A DNA stretch of 39,100 nucleotides from Escherichia phage 6925. The stretch lies in the sequence record ON637250.1. One strand, 5' to 3'. Positions 1,813 through 9,636 of this stretch are shown here, one piece after another; the stretch's first letter is position 1; the number at the start of each line of letters is the position of its first letter. The notes under the pieces were generated by a model. The model did not search any database, was not told where the DNA came from, and worked only from the letters and a program-made list of their open reading frames with translations. The translations under genes and the position numbers were made by a program.

Positions 1813-2040
1813 ATGAACACAATCACTGGTGCCATAACCAAAGGTTTTCGAGCAATTTTCGGTGAAACGCAAGAAGTATGCACCAATCATAAATTCGTAC
1901 TTTCTTGCGTAGCAGGTGACGAGTTTGACGGGTTCGATAAACTGGTGGTTTGCGACCATTGCGGACAAGAGGCTATCCAACACTCAAACGGTAAATTTGA
2001 ATTAATAGACGATAGCCTTACAGAAGGAGACGGCGAGTAA
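1813..2040 (+). CDS. Hypothetical early protein (75 aa) with four Cys (C-x8-C ... C-x2-C), possibly a zinc ribbon
   Basis: ORF with RBS GAGAGGG. Cys at residues 23, 32, 48 and 51 (CDHCG). Confidence 0.55.
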   Translation: MNTITGAITKGFRAIFGETQEVCTNHKFVLSCVAGDEFDGFDKLVVCDHCGQEAIQHSNGKFELIDDSLTEGDGE

Positions 2041-2094
2041 CCTAAATAAACAGGAGAGAACCAAATCATAGCTTGACCATAACACTGACGTGAT

Positions 2095-2145
2095 GGTACT
2101 GAGTGATAGACGAGAGGTCATCGACTGATAGGTGGCCTCAAAGAT
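2095..2145 (+). promoter_or_regulatory. RNase III-like hairpin repeat (degenerate copy)
   Basis: GAGAGGTCATCGACTGATAGGTGGCCTC resembles the other early repeats. Confidence 0.3.
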
Positions 2146-2213
2146 TACCACTTACATTGATAGGAGTTAACTATTAGCACTGCAATCGTCTGGACTATCT
2201 CAGGCTTAGTAGC

Positions 2214-2477
2214 GTGGGGAATGTTTACTCTAGTCTGCAAACTACCGGTCCTTACTCAACTGTTATGGGGCTTATGACTATGAGTATCGCACTATTGATA
2301 GCCATAGGCTATGGACTTATCGCCTACGTGCTGGTGAGAGACATCAACAAAGCGCGTAAAGTCTACAAATTCAACTATGTACGTCTGGGTAGCTGGACTG
2401 TACGTCAACCTAACGGACGATTCATGCGTAACTTAGCGAACGTCTGGGATATAGCAACACTTGGGAGCAAACTGTAA
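2214..2477 (+). CDS. Hypothetical small membrane protein; start uncertain (GTG at 2214 or an internal ATG at about 2265-2274)
   Basis: ORF with a hydrophobic segment SIALLIAIGYGLIAYVLV followed by a basic tail. No strong RBS. Its stop overlaps the next start (TAATG). Confidence 0.4.
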   Translation: MGNVYSSLQTTGPYSTVMGLMTMSIALLIAIGYGLIAYVLVRDINKARKVYKFNYVRLGSWTVRQPNGRFMRNLANVWDIATLGSKL

Positions 2478-2803
2478 TGAACAAGTCATACGGGATTAAT
2501 CTGGTACACTCTATGGACGCAGACATGCAAATGTTAAGCCTACTGGCTACCGGGTATCGTCACGGAACGTCAAGTCACTCCGCACGTCAACAGCAGGAGC
2601 GGGACCGGGTACTGCAAGCAAGACTCCGGGCTGATGGCCATATATACGAACTGATGAGTCTGGCGTATGGTGGACGACCAATCACTGACGATGGTAAACT
2701 TTTAGTCTCAGGCTGGAAGGCGATAGACCAACGGTCAACCATCAAGCACACGACTCATGGTGACTTCAGTCATCTTCACGCTAACCCACTGATATGCAAG
2801 TGA
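2477..2803 (+). CDS. Hypothetical early protein (108 aa), in the position T7 gene 0.7 occupies but not kinase-like
   Basis: ORF translationally coupled to the upstream gene (TAATG). No protein-kinase motifs recognised. Confidence 0.45.
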   Translation: MNKSYGINLVHSMDADMQMLSLLATGYRHGTSSHSARQQQERDRVLQARLRADGHIYELMSLAYGGRPITDDGKLLVSGWKAIDQRSTIKHTTHGDFSHLHANPLICK

Positions 2804-2808
2804 TTCTG

Positions 2809-2831
2809 ACTTAACTATCACTATAGGACTC
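2809..2831 (+). promoter_or_regulatory. Phage RNAP promoter, canonical copy, directly upstream of the RNAP gene
   Basis: ACTTAACTATCACTATA|GGACTC is identical in -17..-1 to the right-end promoter at 38496; +1 G at 2826. Confidence 0.6.
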
Positions 2832-2900
2832 AAGGTCTAAGACTCCAAGTGAAAGACCAAAGAGACTCTAAGTGAAAGACTAATAACAAGGACTTTAAGT

Positions 2901-5582
2901 ATGAGCGTCATCTCTATTGACAAGCACGACTTCTCTGATGTGTCGAACGCCATTGAGCCGTTTAACCTACTGGCTGACCACTACGGGCAAGACCTTGCAG
3001 TCAAACAGCTTCAGCTTGAGCACGAGGCATACACTGAAGGCGAGCGACGTTTCATCAAGAACCTTGAGAGACAGACTGAGCGAGGGGAACTGGCAGACAA
3101 TCAGGTCGCCAAGCCTTTGATGCAGACTCTGGTCCCTAAGATTGCGCAAGCCGTCAAGGAGTGGCATGAAGGTCCAGACGGGAAGCTGTCAACCTCTCGT
3201 CCAAGCGTAGCGTTCACCGTGTTGAGCACTGAAGAGAAGGCCGTCAAGGACCGCTCTATGCGCATCTCCTGTGAGTCCGCTGCGGTTATCATACTGAAGG
3301 TCATACTCTCCAAGCTGGTCAAGCCTGAAGGGATACCGATTACACCGATGGCCTCCGCGATAGGTCGCACACTTGAGGACGAAATCCGCTTCGGTCGCAT
3401 CCGTGACAAAGAGAAAGAGCACTTCAAGAAGGCGATAGCTGATAACCTGAATAAGCGGGCCGGGGCGTCATACAAGAAAGCCTACATGCAAGCGGTCGAG
3501 GCGTCCATGCTGGAGCAAGGCCAACTGGAAGATGCGTGGGGGACTTGGAGTCCTACAGAGGCTGTCCACGTTGGCATCAAGATGCTCGAGATTGTCATCC
3601 AGTCAACACAACTGGTCGAGCTTAAGCGGTACGGTGCTGGCAATGCAGCGGCTGATGTAGAGATGGTCCACCTGTCAGACTTCTGGGTCAAGAAGATGGC
3701 ACAACGAGGATTCAGCCTTGCGGGTATCGCTCCAGTCTATCAGCCTTGCGTCGTTCCACCTAAGCCGTGGACTGGTGTCGTAGGCGGTGGGTATTGGGCC
3801 AAAGGTCGAAGACCATTGCCACTGATTCGCTTAGGGTCTAAGTCTGCGGTATCACGCTACGAAGACGTGTATATGCCTGAAGTCTATGACGCTGTGAACA
3901 TCATTCAGAATACACCTTGGAAAGTGAACAAGAAGGTTCTGGAAGTGGTGAACATGGTCGAGAAGCTGAACAACACGCCTATTGATGACATCCCTCAGAT
4001 GGAACCGCTGAAGCCTGAGGACTATGCTGGTGAGACTGAAGAAGAACTCAAGGCATGGAAGAAGGCTGCTGCTGGTATCTATCGCCGCGAGAAGGCCAGA
4101 CAGTCACGAAGATTGTCACTGAGCTTTATCGTCAACCAAGCGAACAAGTTCTCTCAGTTCAAGGCCATCTGGTTCCCGTATAACATGGACTGGCGCGGTC
4201 GCGTCTACGCTGTGCCGATGTTCAACCCTCAGGGTAACGACATGCAAAAGGGTCTTCTGACTCTGGCAGTTGGTAAGCCTATTGGTGCTGATGGTTTCAA
4301 ATGGCTGAAGGTCCACGGTGCAAACTGCGCGGGTGTCGATAAAGTCACCTTCGAGGAGCGTATCAAGTGGGTGGAAGATAACCACGACAACATCATGGCT
4401 GCTGCCAAGGCACCGATGGATAGCATTGAGTGGTGGGGCAAGTTAGACTCTCCGTTCTGCTTCCTAGCGTTCTGCTTCGAGTATGCTGGCGTAATGCACC
4501 ACGGCTTGTCTTACTCCTGCTCGCTGCCGATAGCGTTCGATGGGTCCTGCTCTGGGATTCAGCACTTCAGCGCTATGCTTCGCGACCACATCGGTGGACA
4601 TGCAGTAAACCTGACGCCATCCGGTAAGGTCCAAGACATCTACCGCATCGTGTCTGACCGCATTGAGGAGGAGCTTAAAGTCCTACTGGTTAACGGTACG
4701 GACAACGAGATGGTAACTCACGAGGACAAGAAAACTGGTGAGATTACCGAACGTATCAAGCTGGGGACACGAGAGCTTGCCCGTCAGTGGCTGACCTACG
4801 GTATGTCACGAAAGGTCACTAAGCGTTCGGTCATGACTCTGGCCTACGGGTCGAAAGAGTACGGCTTCGCAGACCAAGTTTACGAGGACATCGTGATGCC
4901 AGCGATTGACTCAGGGTCTGGCGCTATGTTCACTGAACCAAGCCAAGCATCTCGCTTCATGGCTAAGATGATTTGGGAAGCTGTGAGTGTGACCGTAGTT
5001 GCTGCGGTTGACGCGATGAAGTGGCTTCAGGGTGCTGCCAAGCTGCTGGCTGCTGAAGTGAAGGACAAGAAGACTGGCGAAATCCTGAAGCCATGCCTTC
5101 CGGTACACTGGGTAACACCTGATGGTTTCCCTGTCTGGCAGGAATACCGCAAGAAGGATACCACTCGTCTGAACCTGATGTTCTTAGGGTCATTCAACCT
5201 TCAGCCTACAGTCAACAAAGGAACGAAGAAAGAGCTTGACAAGCACAAGCAGGAGTCAGGCATTAGCCCTAACTTCGTCCACTCACAAGATGGTAGCCAC
5301 CTGCGGAAGACTGTAGTCCACACTCACCGCAAGTATGGCGTGATGTCATTCGCAGTGATTCACGATAGCTTCGGGACCATCCCTGCTGACGCTGAGTATC
5401 TGTTCCGTGGTGTCCGTGAGACGATGGTCGAGACATACCGCGATAACGATGTGCTGCTTGACTTCTACGAGCAGTTTGAATACCAGCTTCATGAAAGTCA
5501 GCGCGACAAGTTGCCTGAGCTTCCGAAGAAAGGTAAACTGAATATCGAAGACATCTTGTCTTCAGACTTTGCATTCGCTTAA
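2901..5582 (+). CDS. 1: T7-like single-subunit DNA-dependent RNA polymerase
   Basis: 893 aa, collinear with T7 RNAP as recalled, including DGSCSGIQHFSAMLRD, HDSFGT and the C-terminal FAFA. RBS AAGGA. Confidence 0.97.
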   Translation: MSVISIDKHDFSDVSNAIEPFNLLADHYGQDLAVKQLQLEHEAYTEGERRFIKNLERQTERGELADNQVAKPLMQTLVPKIAQAVKEWHEGPDGKLSTSRPSVAFTVLSTEEKAVKDRSMRISCESAAVIILKVILSKLVKPEGIPITPMASAIGRTLEDEIRFGRIRDKEKEHFKKAIADNLNKRAGASYKKAYMQAVEASMLEQGQLEDAWGTWSPTEAVHVGIKMLEIVIQSTQLVELKRYGAGNAAADVEMVHLSDFWVKKMAQRGFSLAGIAPVYQPCVVPPKPWTGVVGGGYWAKGRRPLPLIRLGSKSAVSRYEDVYMPEVYDAVNIIQNTPWKVNKKVLEVVNMVEKLNNTPIDDIPQMEPLKPEDYAGETEEELKAWKKAAAGIYRREKARQSRRLSLSFIVNQANKFSQFKAIWFPYNMDWRGRVYAVPMFNPQGNDMQKGLLTLAVGKPIGADGFKWLKVHGANCAGVDKVTFEERIKWVEDNHDNIMAAAKAPMDSIEWWGKLDSPFCFLAFCFEYAGVMHHGLSYSCSLPIAFDGSCSGIQHFSAMLRDHIGGHAVNLTPSGKVQDIYRIVSDRIEEELKVLLVNGTDNEMVTHEDKKTGEITERIKLGTRELARQWLTYGMSRKVTKRSVMTLAYGSKEYGFADQVYEDIVMPAIDSGSGAMFTEPSQASRFMAKMIWEAVSVTVVAAVDAMKWLQGAAKLLAAEVKDKKTGEILKPCLPVHWVTPDGFPVWQEYRKKDTTRLNLMFLGSFNLQPTVNKGTKKELDKHKQESGISPNFVHSQDGSHLRKTVVHTHRKYGVMSFAVIHDSFGTIPADAEYLFRGVRETMVETYRDNDVLLDFYEQFEYQLHESQRDKLPELPKKGKLNIEDILSSDFAFA

Positions 5583-5597
5583 CAGGAGGAGAAGTAT

Positions 5598-5828
5598 ATG
5601 TCAATGAAACTTGTAGCACACAACAGGATATACAACGATGGGTCTGGACGTTGCCATGTAGAGCTGACTTATAAGGATTTAATCATTCTCCGAGACAGAT
5701 TACAGTCGGGTGTGACTGGGTGGATTCAACCTAACGAGTACAACCTTATAGCTTCGATTGATGAAGTTCTTAACGCGTGGATGGAAGACGAGCGCATTCA
5801 GCATCCGTCATTCCCTCTAATTAGATAA
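5598..5828 (+). CDS. Hypothetical protein (76 aa) immediately after the RNAP gene
   Basis: Strong RBS AGGAGGAG 7 nt before the ATG. No match to T7 gp1.1 or gp1.2 as recalled. Confidence 0.55.
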   Translation: MSMKLVAHNRIYNDGSGRCHVELTYKDLIILRDRLQSGVTGWIQPNEYNLIASIDEVLNAWMEDERIQHPSFPLIR

Positions 5829-5838
5829 GGAGAGAGTT

Positions 5839-6054
5839 ATGAAATTTGCACACAAGCATACTGGCGTTAATGGTGGGACTCAAATCGTGACCGTAACAGA
5901 ACACAACGGCAAGGGTCTGGTGAAGACCACGGTCATCCCTACCGAGATGTCCAAGCAGCTTAACATCCCGTTCAAGACTCTTGTATATCTGGTCGAGTCC
6001 AGCCACGAGAAGTACCTGAAGGACGCAGTGTCCAAGCTGGAGCAGGCCAAATGA
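5839..6054 (+). CDS. Hypothetical protein (71 aa)
   Basis: Strong RBS TAAGGAGAG before the ATG. Confidence 0.55.
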   Translation: MKFAHKHTGVNGGTQIVTVTEHNGKGLVKTTVIPTEMSKQLNIPFKTLVYLVESSHEKYLKDAVSKLEQAK

Positions 6055-6128
6055 CAGACATACAGTTACTGGCCCTGTGGCTGGGAGCACTCGCAGTATT
6101 CACTTTAATCCAACGCAGAAGAGGTTAA
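6051..6128 (+). CDS. Possible mini-ORF encoding a 25-aa hydrophobic peptide (MTDIQLLALWLGALAVFTLIQRRRG)
   Basis: ATG overlaps the upstream stop (ATGA), with GGAG 8 nt upstream. Single hydrophobic helix. Too short to be in the ORF track. Confidence 0.25.
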   Translation: MTDIQLLALWLGALAVFTLIQRRRG

Positions 6129-6129
6129 C

Positions 6130-6152
6130 CCTAAACTATCACTATAGGATTA
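6130..6152 (+). promoter_or_regulatory. Phage RNAP promoter (phi1.1-like)
   Basis: CCTAAACTATCACTATA|GGATTA; +1 at 6147. Confidence 0.7.
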
Positions 6153-6195
6153 GACTCAAGGTCATGACTCAAAGTCGTGGCCTTCATGATTAACC
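6148..6195 (+). promoter_or_regulatory. RNase III-like processing site (R1.1-like)
   Basis: TAGACTCAAGGTCATGACTCAAAGTCGTGGCCTTCATGATTAA has the CTCAAGG ... GTGGCC-TTTATGAT pattern of T7 R sites; the same pattern recurs at 13213 and 36093. Confidence 0.55.
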
Positions 6196-6225
6196 CTAAA
6201 TAAACACTACTGGAGATTTAACCGT

Positions 6226-6405
6226 ATGTATCAGAACACTATCAACTTCGAGCGCATCCGTGAACGTCAGCAGACTGAAGGTTACATCCCTAAGGGCCGC
6301 AAGCTGAACAAGACCAAGCGTGGCGGTGGTGTCAAGGGTGCTTTCCGTAACGCTGAAGGCAAAGACTCTATGGTCAACCAAGAGAAGTATTTCGTAGGAG
6401 CGTAA
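6226..6405 (+). CDS. 1.1: Gene 1.1-like small basic protein (59 aa)
   Basis: Own translation: MYQNTINFERIRERQQTEGYIPKGRKLNKTKRGGGVKGAF... The KGRKLNKTKR block matches T7 gp1.1 as recalled. GGAG RBS. Below the 60-aa track cutoff. Confidence 0.65.
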   Translation: MYQNTINFERIRERQQTEGYIPKGRKLNKTKRGGGVKGAFRNAEGKDSMVNQEKYFVGA

Positions 6406-6408
6406 GAC

Positions 6409-6660
6409 ATGAGCAGACGTTGGGTATTCGATGCGTCCACCAGCCAGTGGTCATCGTTAGGCCGGACACACCGCGAGCTGAGTGAGGCAGGACTTGAGGT
6501 CAGAATGGATGTCCTGCCGTGCTCCGGAAAGACTCTGGTCCTAATCATTGAAGCAGACGGTTGGAGGATTCTGGCCTCCCGCGAATTTACCAAAGATGAA
6601 ATCTTTAGCTGTGAGCAATGGTGCTTACAACAATTGAACGCTTATAGGAGCTGGAAATAA
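6409..6660 (+). CDS. Gene 1.2-like protein (dGTPase-inhibitor position), 83 aa
   Basis: Position after 1.1 and before the ligase; weak C-terminal resemblance to T7 gp1.2 (ends ...WK). RBS TAGGAG. Confidence 0.5.
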   Translation: MSRRWVFDASTSQWSSLGRTHRELSEAGLEVRMDVLPCSGKTLVLIIEADGWRILASREFTKDEIFSCEQWCLQQLNAYRSWK

Positions 6661-7775
6661 TGACAACTATTAAAACTAACCCGCACCGCGCTGTAGATTA
6701 CTCTGAGTCAGGAGTTACGAAAGCACTGGCAGCAGCCGGGTCGCTGGAAGCTGAAGTGAAGTATGATGGTGTGCGGCTGAACCTCCCGGTCTTCCCTACT
6801 GGTGAGACACAATGGTTGAGCCGTGAGTCTAAACCTCTCCCAGCCCTTGAGTGGCTGTCAGTCCTTACCAACATCGACAACATCGTCAGGAACCAGCAAA
6901 AAGCTAGCGACTGGCGGTGGTTCCTGAAGCAGGCTGGCTACGAAGGCACTGGCCTGATGATTGACGGTGAGGTCATGGTAAAAGGAGTGGACTTCAATAC
7001 GTCTTCAGGTCTAGTCCGTACCATGTGGTCAGACACTAAGAACTACGCTTGGAATGGCAACCCAGATGCTGACATCGACACCAAGAAGAAGCATAAGGTC
7101 CCTTTCCATCTGGCAACCGACTACATACGCGTGGTTGTCTACGGTATCGTGGACCTTAACGTCATCCTTGACCCGAAATCCGAAGGTCCTATCCATAGCG
7201 TCACACGCCTGAAGGCCGAAGCTATCGTCCCTCTCCTCCAGAAATACTTCCCGGAAATCGACTGGGTTCTGTCTGAGTCACACACGGTCTATGACCTTGA
7301 GTCGCTCAACTCCCTGTACGAAGAGAAGCGTCTGGAAGGACACGAGGGTCTGGTAGTCAAGGACCCGCTTGGTAAATACAAGCGAGGCAAGAAGTCTGGC
7401 ATGTGGAAAATGAAGCCTGAGGAGACCATCGACGGGACCGTGTGTGGCCTCGTGTGGGGGACTCCGGGTAAGGCTAACGAAGGTAAGATCATCGGCTTTG
7501 AGGTTCTACTGGAGGATGGCATGGTGGTCAACGCCTGCGGTCTGTCTGAAGAACAGAAGGACTGGTTTACGGCTAAGGTCAAGGAGGACACGCTTGCTGC
7601 GGTTGGCATCTTTGCGCCGTACGGCATTGGTGGTAACGAACCTTGCTTCGATAACCAATACGAAGGCTGGCAGTGTGAAGTCCTCTTCATGGAGAGGTTC
7701 CCTGATGGCTCCCTTCGTCACCCCAGCTTCAAGTGCTGGCGTGGAACCGAAGACAACCCAACGGTGAAGTCATGA
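6660..7775 (+). CDS. 1.3: ATP-dependent DNA ligase
   Basis: 371 aa with the KYDGVR adenylation motif; collinear with T7 ligase (IKTNP..., EGHEGLVVKDP, KSGMWKMKPE, DGSLRHPSF). Confidence 0.95.
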   Translation: MTTIKTNPHRAVDYSESGVTKALAAAGSLEAEVKYDGVRLNLPVFPTGETQWLSRESKPLPALEWLSVLTNIDNIVRNQQKASDWRWFLKQAGYEGTGLMIDGEVMVKGVDFNTSSGLVRTMWSDTKNYAWNGNPDADIDTKKKHKVPFHLATDYIRVVVYGIVDLNVILDPKSEGPIHSVTRLKAEAIVPLLQKYFPEIDWVLSESHTVYDLESLNSLYEEKRLEGHEGLVVKDPLGKYKRGKKSGMWKMKPEETIDGTVCGLVWGTPGKANEGKIIGFEVLLEDGMVVNACGLSEEQKDWFTAKVKEDTLAAVGIFAPYGIGGNEPCFDNQYEGWQCEVLFMERFPDGSLRHPSFKCWRGTEDNPTVKS

Positions 7776-7951
7776 GTACACAACTTTATATCAACATAGC
7801 AAGTGGTCAACTCTACGCTGTGGTAAATGGCGAGCTGTGGTATCGTAAACTCAAGAAGTGGGCCAAGTCCTACTACGATGAAGAGACAATATCAACCATG
7901 AGTCATCGCTACCGTAAGGCTGCTAAGGTGAACAACTTTAAGATGCGTTAA
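7772..7951 (+). CDS. Hypothetical protein (59 aa), start overlapping the ligase stop (ATGA)
   Basis: In-frame ATG at 7772 inside track ORF 7733..7951; MSTQLYINIASGQLYAVVNGELWYRKLKKW... Confidence 0.45.
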   Translation: MSTQLYINIASGQLYAVVNGELWYRKLKKWAKSYYDEETISTMSHRYRKAAKVNNFKMR

Positions 7952-7955
7952 CGTC

Positions 7956-7990
7956 AACCCAGTGGTCTTATGACTGCTGGGTTTCTTTGC
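7956..7990 (+). terminator. Candidate early (host RNAP) terminator, TE-like hairpin
   Basis: Stem AACCCAGT/GCTGGGTT (7956-7963 with 7976-7983) followed by TTTCTTTG; position is analogous to T7 TE. The U-run is interrupted. Confidence 0.35.
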
Positions 7991-8010
7991 GTACGGGCCA
8001 CCAGCTAGAC

Positions 8011-8033
8011 CCTAAGCTATCACTATAGGACAA
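8011..8033 (+). promoter_or_regulatory. Phage RNAP promoter
   Basis: CCTAAGCTATCACTATA|GGACAA; +1 at 8028. Confidence 0.7.
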
Positions 8034-8059
8034 CCCTAACCGACCAAAGGAGAAACCTT

Positions 8060-8314
8060 ATGTCTAAAAACTTAATGTTCAACCGATTTACTCGAAGCTT
8101 CCACCTGTCGCATAGCCCATTCAGCTTCCATAAATCTAATCAACCATTACCCAGCTTTGGTAAGACAGTGGCTCTGTCTCCCACAGTTCATGCGCTAGTC
8201 ACCCGCAAGTCTATGCTGAAGGCTATGGATAAAGAACAAGTCGATGTACCTGTGGTCGTTACAAAATGGCCTCGCATTAAGCTGGCCCTTCTGGTAATTA
8301 AGGAGGTGTTTTGA
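8060..8314 (+). CDS. Gene 1.6-like hypothetical protein (84 aa)
   Basis: RBS AAAGGAGAAA. The C-terminal ...LLVIKEVF resembles a T7 class II small protein as I recall it; which T7 gene is uncertain. Confidence 0.5.
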   Translation: MSKNLMFNRFTRSFHLSHSPFSFHKSNQPLPSFGKTVALSPTVHALVTRKSMLKAMDKEQVDVPVVVTKWPRIKLALLVIKEVF

Positions 8315-8652
8315 TGGCATATTGTGATAGCACCACATACTGTGAAGCATGTAATGGTGATGACCGCTTCCCACACGTTGGTAAACTTGTAGGTAACAAG
8401 CTGCAAGAAATTGATGGTGTACGCAAGCCATCCCACTATCAGGTCTTTGATGGCGTGGAATCCATTGAGATTATCGCACGGTCAATGACTGTGAGTGAGT
8501 TCCGTGGGTTCTGCATGGGTAACGTCCTGAAGTATCGACTCCGGGCTGGTAAGAAGTCAGAGCTGGCAACTATGGAGAAGGACCTGAACAAAGCAGCCTT
8601 CTATCAGGAGCTGTTCGACCTGCATAAAGGTAAGTGCTATGCTTCCGAGTGA
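8311..8652 (+). CDS. 1.7: Gene 1.7-like protein (nucleotide kinase family), N-terminally shorter than T7 gp1.7
   Basis: KPSHYQVFDGVESIEIIARSMTVSEFRGFCMGNVLKYRLRAGKKSELATMEKDLNKAAFYQELFDLHKGKCYA aligns with the T7 gp1.7 C-terminal half as recalled. 113 aa versus 196 aa in T7. Confidence 0.8.
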   Translation: MMAYCDSTTYCEACNGDDRFPHVGKLVGNKLQEIDGVRKPSHYQVFDGVESIEIIARSMTVSEFRGFCMGNVLKYRLRAGKKSELATMEKDLNKAAFYQELFDLHKGKCYASE

Positions 8653-8662
8653 GTGGTGTGAA

Positions 8663-8734
8663 ATGATGTTCGAGAAGACAGGTAACACTGACTACCTTGA
8701 ATTGTATAACCAGTGGAAGGAGCGCGGTTTATGA
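8663..8734 (+). CDS. Possible mini-ORF (23 aa) coupled to gene 2
   Basis: ATG-ATG start; stop overlaps the gene 2 ATG (ATGA). No other support. Confidence 0.2.
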
Positions 8735-8889
8735 CTGAGGTTGAGAAGAAATACATCGTGGAGCTTGAGGGTCGCGTTCAGTCCTTCGAGGTTCCGTTGT
8801 ACGCAAAGTCTCTTGAAGAGGCTACCCTGAAGTCCCAAGAGTATGAGGACGCTGGGTTTATGGTCGGACGGATTCGTCCTGAGACCTAA
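8731..8889 (+). CDS. 2: gp2-like inhibitor of host RNA polymerase (52 aa)
   Basis: Own translation: [52 protein letters not shown]. The SFEVPLYA and AGF-V-R-RP blocks match T7 gp2 as recalled. Below the 60-aa track cutoff. Confidence 0.7.
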
Positions 8890-8907
8890 ACTATCACTGT
8901 AGGACAG
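8885..8907 (+). promoter_or_regulatory. Phage RNAP promoter (phi2.5-like), variant core CACTGTA
   Basis: CCTAAACTATCACTGTA|GGACAG, one mismatch at -2; overlaps the gene 2 stop. Confidence 0.55.
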
Positions 8908-8946
8908 ACGTCCAGTTCGTAACTTTAAATTAGGAGATTTACACCG

Positions 8947-9636
8947 ATGGCTAAAGAGCAACTGAAGACTTTCACCACTCCGGTAGCTGGTATCGTTGAG
9001 CCTTACGCATGGCTGAACAAAGCAGACACCAAGTTTAATGAGCGTGGTGAGCATAAGGTTAACCTGACGTTCGACCTGAGCGACCCGAAGGTCCGTAAGA
9101 TGATTGATGTCTTACAGAAGATTCACGACGATGCGTATGCGAAAGCACTCGCAGACCACGAGAAGAACCCACCTCAGGTTCAGCGTGGCAAGAAGCCTAT
9201 TGAACCACGTGAAGGCGACATGCCGTGGATTGAGAATGGTGACGGTACTGTTACCCTTAAGTTTAAATGCTTTGCGTCTTACCTGAAAGACGGCAAGTCC
9301 GAGCCTATCGTATTACGGTTCTACGACACCGATGCTAAACTCATCCGTGACGTCCCGAATATCTGCGCTGGGTCTAAGCTGAAGGTCAAGTTTAAAGTCC
9401 TGCCGTTCAAGTGGAACGCTGCGACTGGTGCAAGCGTTAAGCTTCAGCTTGAGTCCTGCCTTCTGGTAGAACTGAAGGAGTGGAAAGGTGATGGTGGCGA
9501 TGGTGGCTGGGGTGATGATGAAGACCTCGGTACTGGTTACAAAGCGTCAACCGTTGGTGACTTCGGTGGTGATGACTTCGGTGACGATGGTTCCGAAGGT
9601 GGTGACGATGATTACGAAGGCGATTACAACTTCTAA
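8947..9636 (+). CDS. 2.5: Single-stranded DNA-binding protein
   Basis: 229 aa, collinear with T7 gp2.5 (GDMPW, KFKC, SKLKVKFKVLPFKWN, VKLQLES), with an acidic C-terminal tail ending in F. Confidence 0.93.
   Translation: MAKEQLKTFTTPVAGIVEPYAWLNKADTKFNERGEHKVNLTFDLSDPKVRKMIDVLQKIHDDAYAKALADHEKNPPQVQRGKKPIEPREGDMPWIENGDGTVTLKFKCFASYLKDGKSEPIVLRFYDTDAKLIRDVPNICAGSKLKVKFKVLPFKWNAATGASVKLQLESCLLVELKEWKGDGGDGGWGDDEDLGTGYKASTVGDFGGDDFGDDGSEGGDDDYEGDYNF

Follow-up and report, generated by a model that had tools for sequence, protein, structure and literature searches.

Phage T7 makes a set of small class I proteins, among them Ocr (gp0.3), the FtsZ inhibitor gp0.4, gp0.6 (MreB), gp1.1, and the dGTPase inhibitor gp1.2. 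In the T7 group, genes of this class lie between the early host promoters and the terminator TE, encode products of 25 to 120 amino acids (aa), carry strong individual ribosome-binding sites, and are variably present. To our knowledge, no characterized T7 early protein is a 25-aa membrane peptide. Bacteria have small inner-membrane proteins, such as the type I toxins TisB, ShoB, and DinQ or the regulators MgtS, AcrZ, and PmrR, which are 19 to 50 aa long, have one hydrophobic helix with charged ends, and are often missed by gene callers. Kayfunaviruses (K1F, LM33_P1, and relatives) serve as therapeutic and engineering chassis phages, whose early regions determine how the host is taken over and its defences are escaped.

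Here we describe three small open reading frames (ORF1, ORF2, and a mini-ORF) beside the polymerase gene of Escherichia phage 6925, in a 39,100-nucleotide (nt) stretch of record ON637250.1 that we call the window. The three ORFs share the position, size range, strong ribosome-binding sites, and variable presence of T7-group class I genes but have no sequence or convincing fold relationship to the T7-group class I proteins. They are a normal feature of the genus, two of them (ORF1 and ORF2) are already catalogued, and by themselves they reveal no new mechanism; what our analysis adds is firm comparative support for a predicted membrane-peptide gene of 25 residues that is translationally coupled to its upstream neighbour.

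Gene order between gene 1 and gene 1.1

A megablast search with positions 5400-6500 of the window matched 446 phage records, the best being those of Escherichia phage HC12 (98.7% over 100%), EcoDS1, LM33_P1, and many 'Kayfunavirus sp.' entries; by its sequence, the window is a K1F/EcoDS1-like Kayfunavirus (Studiervirinae, T7 group). Gene 1, for the T7-type single-subunit RNA polymerase of 893 aa, occupies 2901-5582 on the plus strand, according to the ORF list and the syntenic annotation of HC12, EcoDS1, and ASO2B. Behind it on the same strand, ORF1 (5598-5828; 76 aa, pI 5.8) matches PHROG 28104 (1.6e-54) and is preceded by the Shine-Dalgarno sequence AGGAGG (5584-5589), 8 nt 5' of its ATG. 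ORF2 (5839-6054; 71 aa, pI 9.5; PHROG 8082, 4.7e-42) follows with the Shine-Dalgarno sequence AAGGAG (5827-5832), which lies 6 nt 5' of its ATG and overlaps the ORF1 stop codon. The mini-ORF (6051-6128 in the ORF list), for the 25-aa peptide MTDIQLLALWLGALAVFTLIQRRRG, begins with an ATG that overlaps the ORF2 stop codon (ATGA) and has its own Shine-Dalgarno sequence, GGAG, at 6039-6042, 8 nt 5' of that ATG; all three Shine-Dalgarno sequences were read directly from the sequence. The next feature on this strand is a phage RNA polymerase promoter at 6130-6152 (consensus 6130-6149, +1 at about G6147), an analogue of T7 phi1.1A that fits the K1F-type consensus with zero mismatches. Just 3' of its start site lies a stable RNA hairpin without a U-tract (6156-6186, plus strand; MFE -17.7 kcal/mol, z = -3.9). 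Judged by homology, T7-like synteny resumes at 6226-6405 on the plus strand with a 59-aa gp1.1 homologue (Pfam PF08200 Phage_1_1, 5.6e-11; BLAST against T7 gp1.1, 2.7e-6), followed by a gp1.2-like dGTPase inhibitor gene at 6409-6660 (PHROG 6515, 1.2e-33).

In the T7 reference, nothing lies between the end of gene 1 (5822) and phi1.1A (5848), whereas the window has three ORFs (5598-6128) ahead of its promoter at 6130. The preliminary description of this DNA had drawn attention to these extra genes, and its account holds on several points: the ORF list contains the three frames at the same positions, ORF1 and ORF2 do carry the strong ribosome-binding sites ascribed to them, and the ORFs resemble neither gp1.1 nor gp1.2, which it had located further downstream. 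Indeed, the Phage_1_1 profile matches only 6226-6405, with no match at E <= 1 for ORF1, ORF2, or the mini-ORF, and the dGTPase inhibitor PHROG 6515 matches only 6409-6660, leaving the three ORFs unmatched. BLAST against T7 gp1.1 and gp1.2 gave no alignment for ORF2 or the mini-ORF and, for ORF1, nothing beyond chance fragments against gp1.2 (best E = 0.16). The same description had called the genes inserted and had proposed a comparison of synteny in related phages, which we carried out on 41 non-redundant loci. ORF2 and the mini-ORF are present in all 41 and ORF1 is present in 10, and "inserted" therefore fits ORF1, which varies within the genus, but not ORF2 and the mini-ORF, which are fixed in every relative examined. 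Between gene 1 and gene 1.1, this comparison shows a short, variable segment in which ORF2 and the mini-ORF are the constant core and two cassettes are optional.

All three ORFs evolve as protein-coding genes

With 115 ORFs of at least 20 aa overlapping positions 2000-9000, that is, in 7 kb, an open frame alone means little, and we therefore relied on comparison with relatives. The 41 loci were drawn from GenBank phages, IMG/VR, metagenomes, and Logan, and pN/pS values are pooled Nei-Gojobori estimates. ORF1 has a pN/pS of 0.29 to 0.36 in frame and 0.9 to 1.5 in the other two plus-strand frames; the corresponding values are 0.19 and 1.6 to 2.1 for codons 1 to 46 of ORF2, and 0.26 to 0.27 and 1.06 to 1.15 for the mini-ORF. 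When the 36 unique mini-ORF sequences are joined in a minimum spanning tree, synonymous changes number 72 and non-synonymous ones 34, at an expected synonymous fraction of 0.26 (binomial p = 1.8e-18), and the same tree gives no synonymous enrichment in the other two frames (p = 0.36 and 0.97).

The mini-ORF is also intact in every one of the 41 loci. It starts with ATG in 39 and GTG in 2, has 25 codons in 40 and 26 in one, and always ends at one position (TAA in 38, TGA in 2, and TAG in 1). Even phage L034, whose ORF1 and ORF2 are only 42 to 45% identical to those of the window, has kept a divergent, GTGA-overlapped version of 26 codons (MTDNQLWLTLWSAFLITFIVFQRRRG). The hydrophobic frame that had been put forward as possibly a gene thus gains strong coding support.

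It could be argued that selection keeps 6051-6128 as an element at the level of the DNA or RNA, for instance an upstream part of a promoter or origin or an mRNA-stabilizing structure, and that its open frame is incidental. The stretch does end 2 nt before the promoter, and it closes with GGTTAACCC, which looks like the 5' flank of a promoter-like repeat at 6190. However, substitutions are concentrated at the synonymous sites of one frame, and this frame specificity excludes a purely nucleotide-level element; moreover, synonymous divergence in the mini-ORF (pS 0.31) equals that in ORF2 (pS 0.33), which argues against additional constraint at the nucleotide level, and we found neither RNA structure over the mini-ORF (z = +0.25) nor an Rfam match in a scan of 5400-6500. 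We consider such an element extremely improbable. All three ORFs are very probably real protein-coding genes, because their in-frame pN/pS values, the synonymous excess, and the conserved frame and overlap point the same way, with neither RNA structure nor an Rfam family to account for them.

ORF2 and the mini-ORF form a coupled pair

ORF2 was found in 219 phage records, from phages of Escherichia, Salmonella, Enterobacter, Citrobacter, Cronobacter, Shigella, and Klebsiella, and falls into 157 protein clusters at 90% identity. Among the upper Kayfunavirus matches listed, its identity is 74 to 100%, and it drops below 60% in 63 of the 219 records. Its AF2 model (pLDDT 84) has three strands, a short helix, and a long helix. 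Fold searches matched LptE and type III secretion chaperones only in part, through a generic beta-beta-beta-alpha arrangement, and BFVD returned the family itself plus an unrelated 59-aa protein of ECBP5, probably ECBP5_0016, encoded between the helicase and polymerase genes, with no shared context. One ORF2 homologue gave a sub-threshold HTH_17 match covering profile positions 27 to 50, which are not the helix-turn-helix core. None of these candidates was retained.

The mini-ORF, detected by tblastn in 175 phage records, accompanies ORF2 in all 41 loci, and the ORF2 stop and mini-ORF start invariably overlap by 4 nt, as ATGA or GTGA. An overlapping stop and start conserved in relatives, which is what a translationally coupled pair would show, is therefore found in 41 of 41 loci, and we conclude from this comparison that the genus carries ORF2 and the mini-ORF as a fixed pair whose translation is coupled. 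A programmed frameshift that fuses the two frames was considered and set aside, as inspection showed no slippery heptamer ahead of the overlap and GTG-start variants exist. Across the 41 loci, the C-terminal types of ORF2 do not co-vary with the types of mini-ORF, and their distribution is mosaic; since the variants do not co-vary, nothing supports a physical complex between the ORF2 protein and the peptide.

The peptide has a core of 16 to 17 residues (5-20) whose GRAVY is 1.7 to 2.3 in all 21 peptide variants, with an invariant W10. Its ends are charged, with an acidic D3 in most variants and a conserved RRG (QRRRG in 19 of the 21). A hydrophobic stretch able to span the bilayer and charged flanks, the sequence hallmarks of a single-pass protein, are thus both present, and the mini-ORF product is likely to be a membrane peptide, predicted to be single-pass. 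Because the N terminus is acidic (MTD) and the C terminus basic (QRRRG), the positive-inside rule would predict an orientation in the inner membrane with the N terminus out and the C terminus in. In length, single hydrophobic helix, charged ends, and the ease with which gene callers overlook it, the peptide resembles the small bacterial inner-membrane proteins and type I toxins mentioned above; unlike them, it would depend for its synthesis on coupling to the phage gene upstream. It also differs from them in having no sequence similarity to them, no evident antisense RNA, and no separate promoter, and promoter prediction found nothing sigma-70-like on the minus strand between 5598 and 6200.

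A T3 gene 1.05 relative adjoins the pair in some phages

The mini-ORF directly adjoins the promoter in 21 of the 41 loci, as it does in the window. In 17 loci, it is followed by a full-length member of PF25755, the T3 gene 1.05 family, of 151 to 164 aa, and in about 40% of relatives a gene of this family sits between the mini-ORF and the promoter, with its stop codon inside the promoter (cttcTAAACTATCAC). Genuine members occur in EcoDS1 (locus L001, 2234-2704), in locus L011 (2295-2765), and in L034 (5560-6054). Two further loci, L008 and L062, have only ORFs of 70 and 42 aa at this place, possibly disrupted copies. The T3 gene 1.05 family thus occupies the same gene 1-gene 1.1 interval and lies directly 3' of the mini-ORF in those relatives, but the window has no member of it: ORF1 and ORF2 gave no match to the PF25755 profile in Pfam, and the mini-ORF does not resemble T3 gp1.05 either.

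This arrangement raises the possibility that the mini-ORF is only a coupling device that carries ribosomes and the Shine-Dalgarno sequence AGAAGAGGT to the T3-1.05-like gene and that the copy in the window is a relic. The PF25755 gene starts 4 to 7 nt after the mini-ORF stop in 17 to 20 of the 41 loci, and its Shine-Dalgarno sequence, published as the ribosome-binding site of the T3-1.05-like gene (PMC4925675, Table 5), lies inside the RRRG codons of the mini-ORF. Selection on the peptide is nevertheless much the same without a gp1.05 gene (pN/pS 0.28, 19 unique sequences) as with one (0.26); hydrophobicity and charged ends are kept across variants, with changes in the arginine codons that keep arginine. 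A relic would gain stop codons or frameshifts, but none of the 21 promoter-adjacent copies has any. We therefore regard a function in coupling alone as improbable and favour a gene that is maintained for its peptide.

ORF1 is an optional cassette

ORF1 is much rarer than ORF2. Of 50,697 phage records, 39 contain it, nearly all of them E. coli phages, with 82 to 97% identity to the window's version, and two protein searches together gave 13 clusters at 90% identity. HMMER, run in full against 1.84 billion representative proteins, yielded only 5 clusters at 50% identity. All 5 have the same genomic position wherever the context is known, and ORF1 homologues then directly follow the polymerase gene. 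ORF1 is absent from K1F, vB_EcoP_F, and CR44b, and in the 10 of 41 loci that have it, it co-occurs with different ORF2 types. Given these absences and the 39 records against 219 for ORF2, comparison indicates that ORF1 is a variable accessory cassette, gained or lost among close relatives.

The junctions suggest how this may happen. Direct AGGAG repeats, which form both ribosome-binding sites, flank the cassette at 5580-5597 and 5826-5838, the junctions read TAACAGGAG|GAGAAG...TAAGGAG|AGAGTTATG, and relatives that lack ORF1 have TAACAGGAG|AGAGTTATG, with the ORF2 start 12 to 18 nt after the gene 1 stop. The ORF1-less junction is the product expected from recombination between the AGGAG repeats, and it therefore fits gain or loss via microhomology.

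The AF2 model of ORF1 (pLDDT 69) shows a beta-hairpin and two helices, and its fold search was uninformative, with helical hairpins as the only matches. The N termini of ORF1 and ORF2 look alike by eye, but hhalign gives a probability of 0.1, and we rejected the idea that the two are diverged paralogues.

Transcription of the cluster

No promoter or terminator is predicted between gene 1 and 6128, and the TE-like terminator, a hairpin followed by a run of T that matches the TE annotated in EcoDS1, is situated well downstream (about 7955-7990). It is plausible on these grounds that the three ORFs share the early, host-polymerase transcription unit of gene 1, which agrees with the earlier suggestion of early co-transcription. 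A 59-aa ORF (7772-7951, ATG at 7772), with an ATGA overlap with the ligase stop codon and no match in a Pfam scan, immediately precedes this TE-like hairpin.

Zero-mismatch K1F-type promoters occur at 11 sites in the window and at none in shuffled sequences; the one at 6130, which starts 2 nt after the mini-ORF stop, is annotated in ASO2B, EcoDS1, and CR44b. Another phage-promoter-like site, ACTTAACTATCACTATAGGA at 2809-2828, has 2 mismatches to the consensus and lies about 70 nt upstream of gene 1, within a stretch conserved in 218 records; the 121 nt around it reach 95% identity or more in 170 phage records. ASO2B has a TATA-to-TTTA change in this site and no promoter annotation there. T7, as far as we know, has no phage promoter just upstream of gene 1. 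This site may allow the cluster to be transcribed by the phage polymerase besides the early host enzyme, and expression of gene 1 from it could be autocatalytic.

The hairpin at 6156-6186 is labelled as a (rho-independent) terminator in ASO2B. By analogy with T7, it is probably not a terminator but an RNase III processing site equivalent to R1.1. Beyond the hairpin, at 6190-6216, lies what looks like a degenerate second promoter copy, TTAACCCTAAATAAACACTACTGGAGA, that has lost the TATAGG core and now appears to supply the GGAG ribosome-binding site of gene 1.1; its position presumably corresponds to that of T7 phi1.1B.

Homology searches beyond the genus

Remote-homology searches, which the preliminary description had named as a check, connected the three ORFs to no characterized family and gave no sign of the homology to benign T7-group proteins that would have spoken against its reading. 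Pfam and NCBIfam have no match for ORF1, ORF2, or the mini-ORF, and the PHROGs that they match are unknown-function families only. None of the three matched an anti-phage defence profile of PADLOC-DB at E <= 1, PDB sequence profiles gave nothing below E = 2, and the supplementary files of the accessory-gene screen by Silas et al. contain none of the three sequences. No homologue was found in 5,426 complete E. coli genomes, and plasmids gave no meaningful tblastn match. By these searches, the three ORFs are unrelated to any characterized family and appear to be phage-only genes. A literature search found no functional study on them.

Possible roles

Our results lead us to propose, with a probability of roughly 55% for the explanation as a whole, that the locus holds three coding genes, a coupled pair and the optional ORF1, for host-directed small early proteins. 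The gene 1 transcript, made early by host RNA polymerase, would carry all three genes, and the phage polymerase would probably also read the cluster from the promoter-like site upstream of gene 1. Ribosomes that end at the ORF2 stop would re-initiate on the overlapping ATGA, and a basic, soluble alpha/beta protein of 7.9 kDa (ORF2) and a peptide of 2.9 kDa would be made together. The peptide would insert into the inner membrane as a single hydrophobic helix, N terminus out and C terminus in, and might either act on a target there or tether or assist the ORF2 product at the membrane. ORF1, as an optional cassette, may be an accessory gene related to host range or defence. Each product might bind a host component, like other small class I proteins of the T7 group, and thereby serve takeover or counter-defence. 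By analogy with those proteins, we see about an even chance that the role is host-directed or anti-defence rather than phage-internal.

ORF2, with or without the mini-peptide, might instead serve the phage's own machinery by modulating the phage RNA polymerase or aiding initiation at the primary origin. Both have parallels in T7, whose RNA polymerase is modulated by the T7 lysozyme gp3.5 and whose primary replication origin coincides with the phi1.1 promoters. Such a role would suit a basic protein (pI 9.5) that is core rather than accessory (41 of 41 loci, 219 records), that is encoded 12 to 18 nt after the gene 1 stop in every relative lacking ORF1, and whose pair with the mini-ORF abuts a phi1.1-type promoter and hairpin. 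The polymerases and origins of T7 and T3, however, work without such a gene, which is in part established T7 knowledge; ORF2 has no nucleic-acid- or polymerase-binding signature, its HTH_17 match covering the wrong part of the profile; and in about half of the relatives a gene of 150 to 160 aa separates the pair from the promoter. On balance, we consider a phage-internal role rather unlikely.

Within the host-directed reading that we prefer, ORF2 and the peptide can be imagined as a two-part early module in which the peptide, by itself or together with the ORF2 product, disables or exploits a function associated with the host envelope, with ORF1 as a separate, E. coli-specific counter-defence cassette; this more specific proposal is speculative and, in our estimate, doubtful. 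If it were true, the target might be, for example, a membrane-bound abortive-infection or exclusion system, and the mini-ORF would rank among the smallest phage genes that are conserved. The three ORFs are concrete candidates for deletion and toxicity tests.

Names and annotations in existing records

The comparison corrects the gene map of this region, in that three real genes lie beside the polymerase gene and several labels given to them are misleading. ORF1 and ORF2 have already been deposited as hypothetical proteins, and both PHROGs are of unknown function. The 'gp1.1' of K1F and Dev2, the '1.05' of CR44b, the 'unknown product' of EcoDS1, and YP_009324944 of GA2A belong to the same gene families as the window's genes. 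ORF2 is called 'gp1.1' in the K1F RefSeq, EcoDS1, and Dev2 records despite having neither a PF08200 match nor an alignment to T7 gp1.1, and '1.05' in CR44b without a PF25755 match; these record names are positional and misleading. The 'DUF2842' given to the mini-ORF in IMM-002 fares no better, as three variants of the peptide gave no match to Pfam DUF2842 at E <= 1.

Most annotations leave out the predicted membrane peptide of 25 residues or show a spurious out-of-frame ORF in its place. At least two records (GA2A and IMM-002) list the mini-ORF as a CDS; it is missing from the annotations of K1F, EcoDS1, HC12, ASO2B, and SH4, and is replaced in PM131 by an out-of-frame ORF (PM131_026) that extends across the promoter and hairpin. 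Product labels in SHAK7854 and SHAK9454 are apparently shifted by several genes. Finally, Kayfunavirus sequences also appear under improbable hosts, as 'Acinetobacter phage vB_Aba_01KA', 'Staphylococcus phage MBBL139', and 'Enterococcus phage IME_EF3'.
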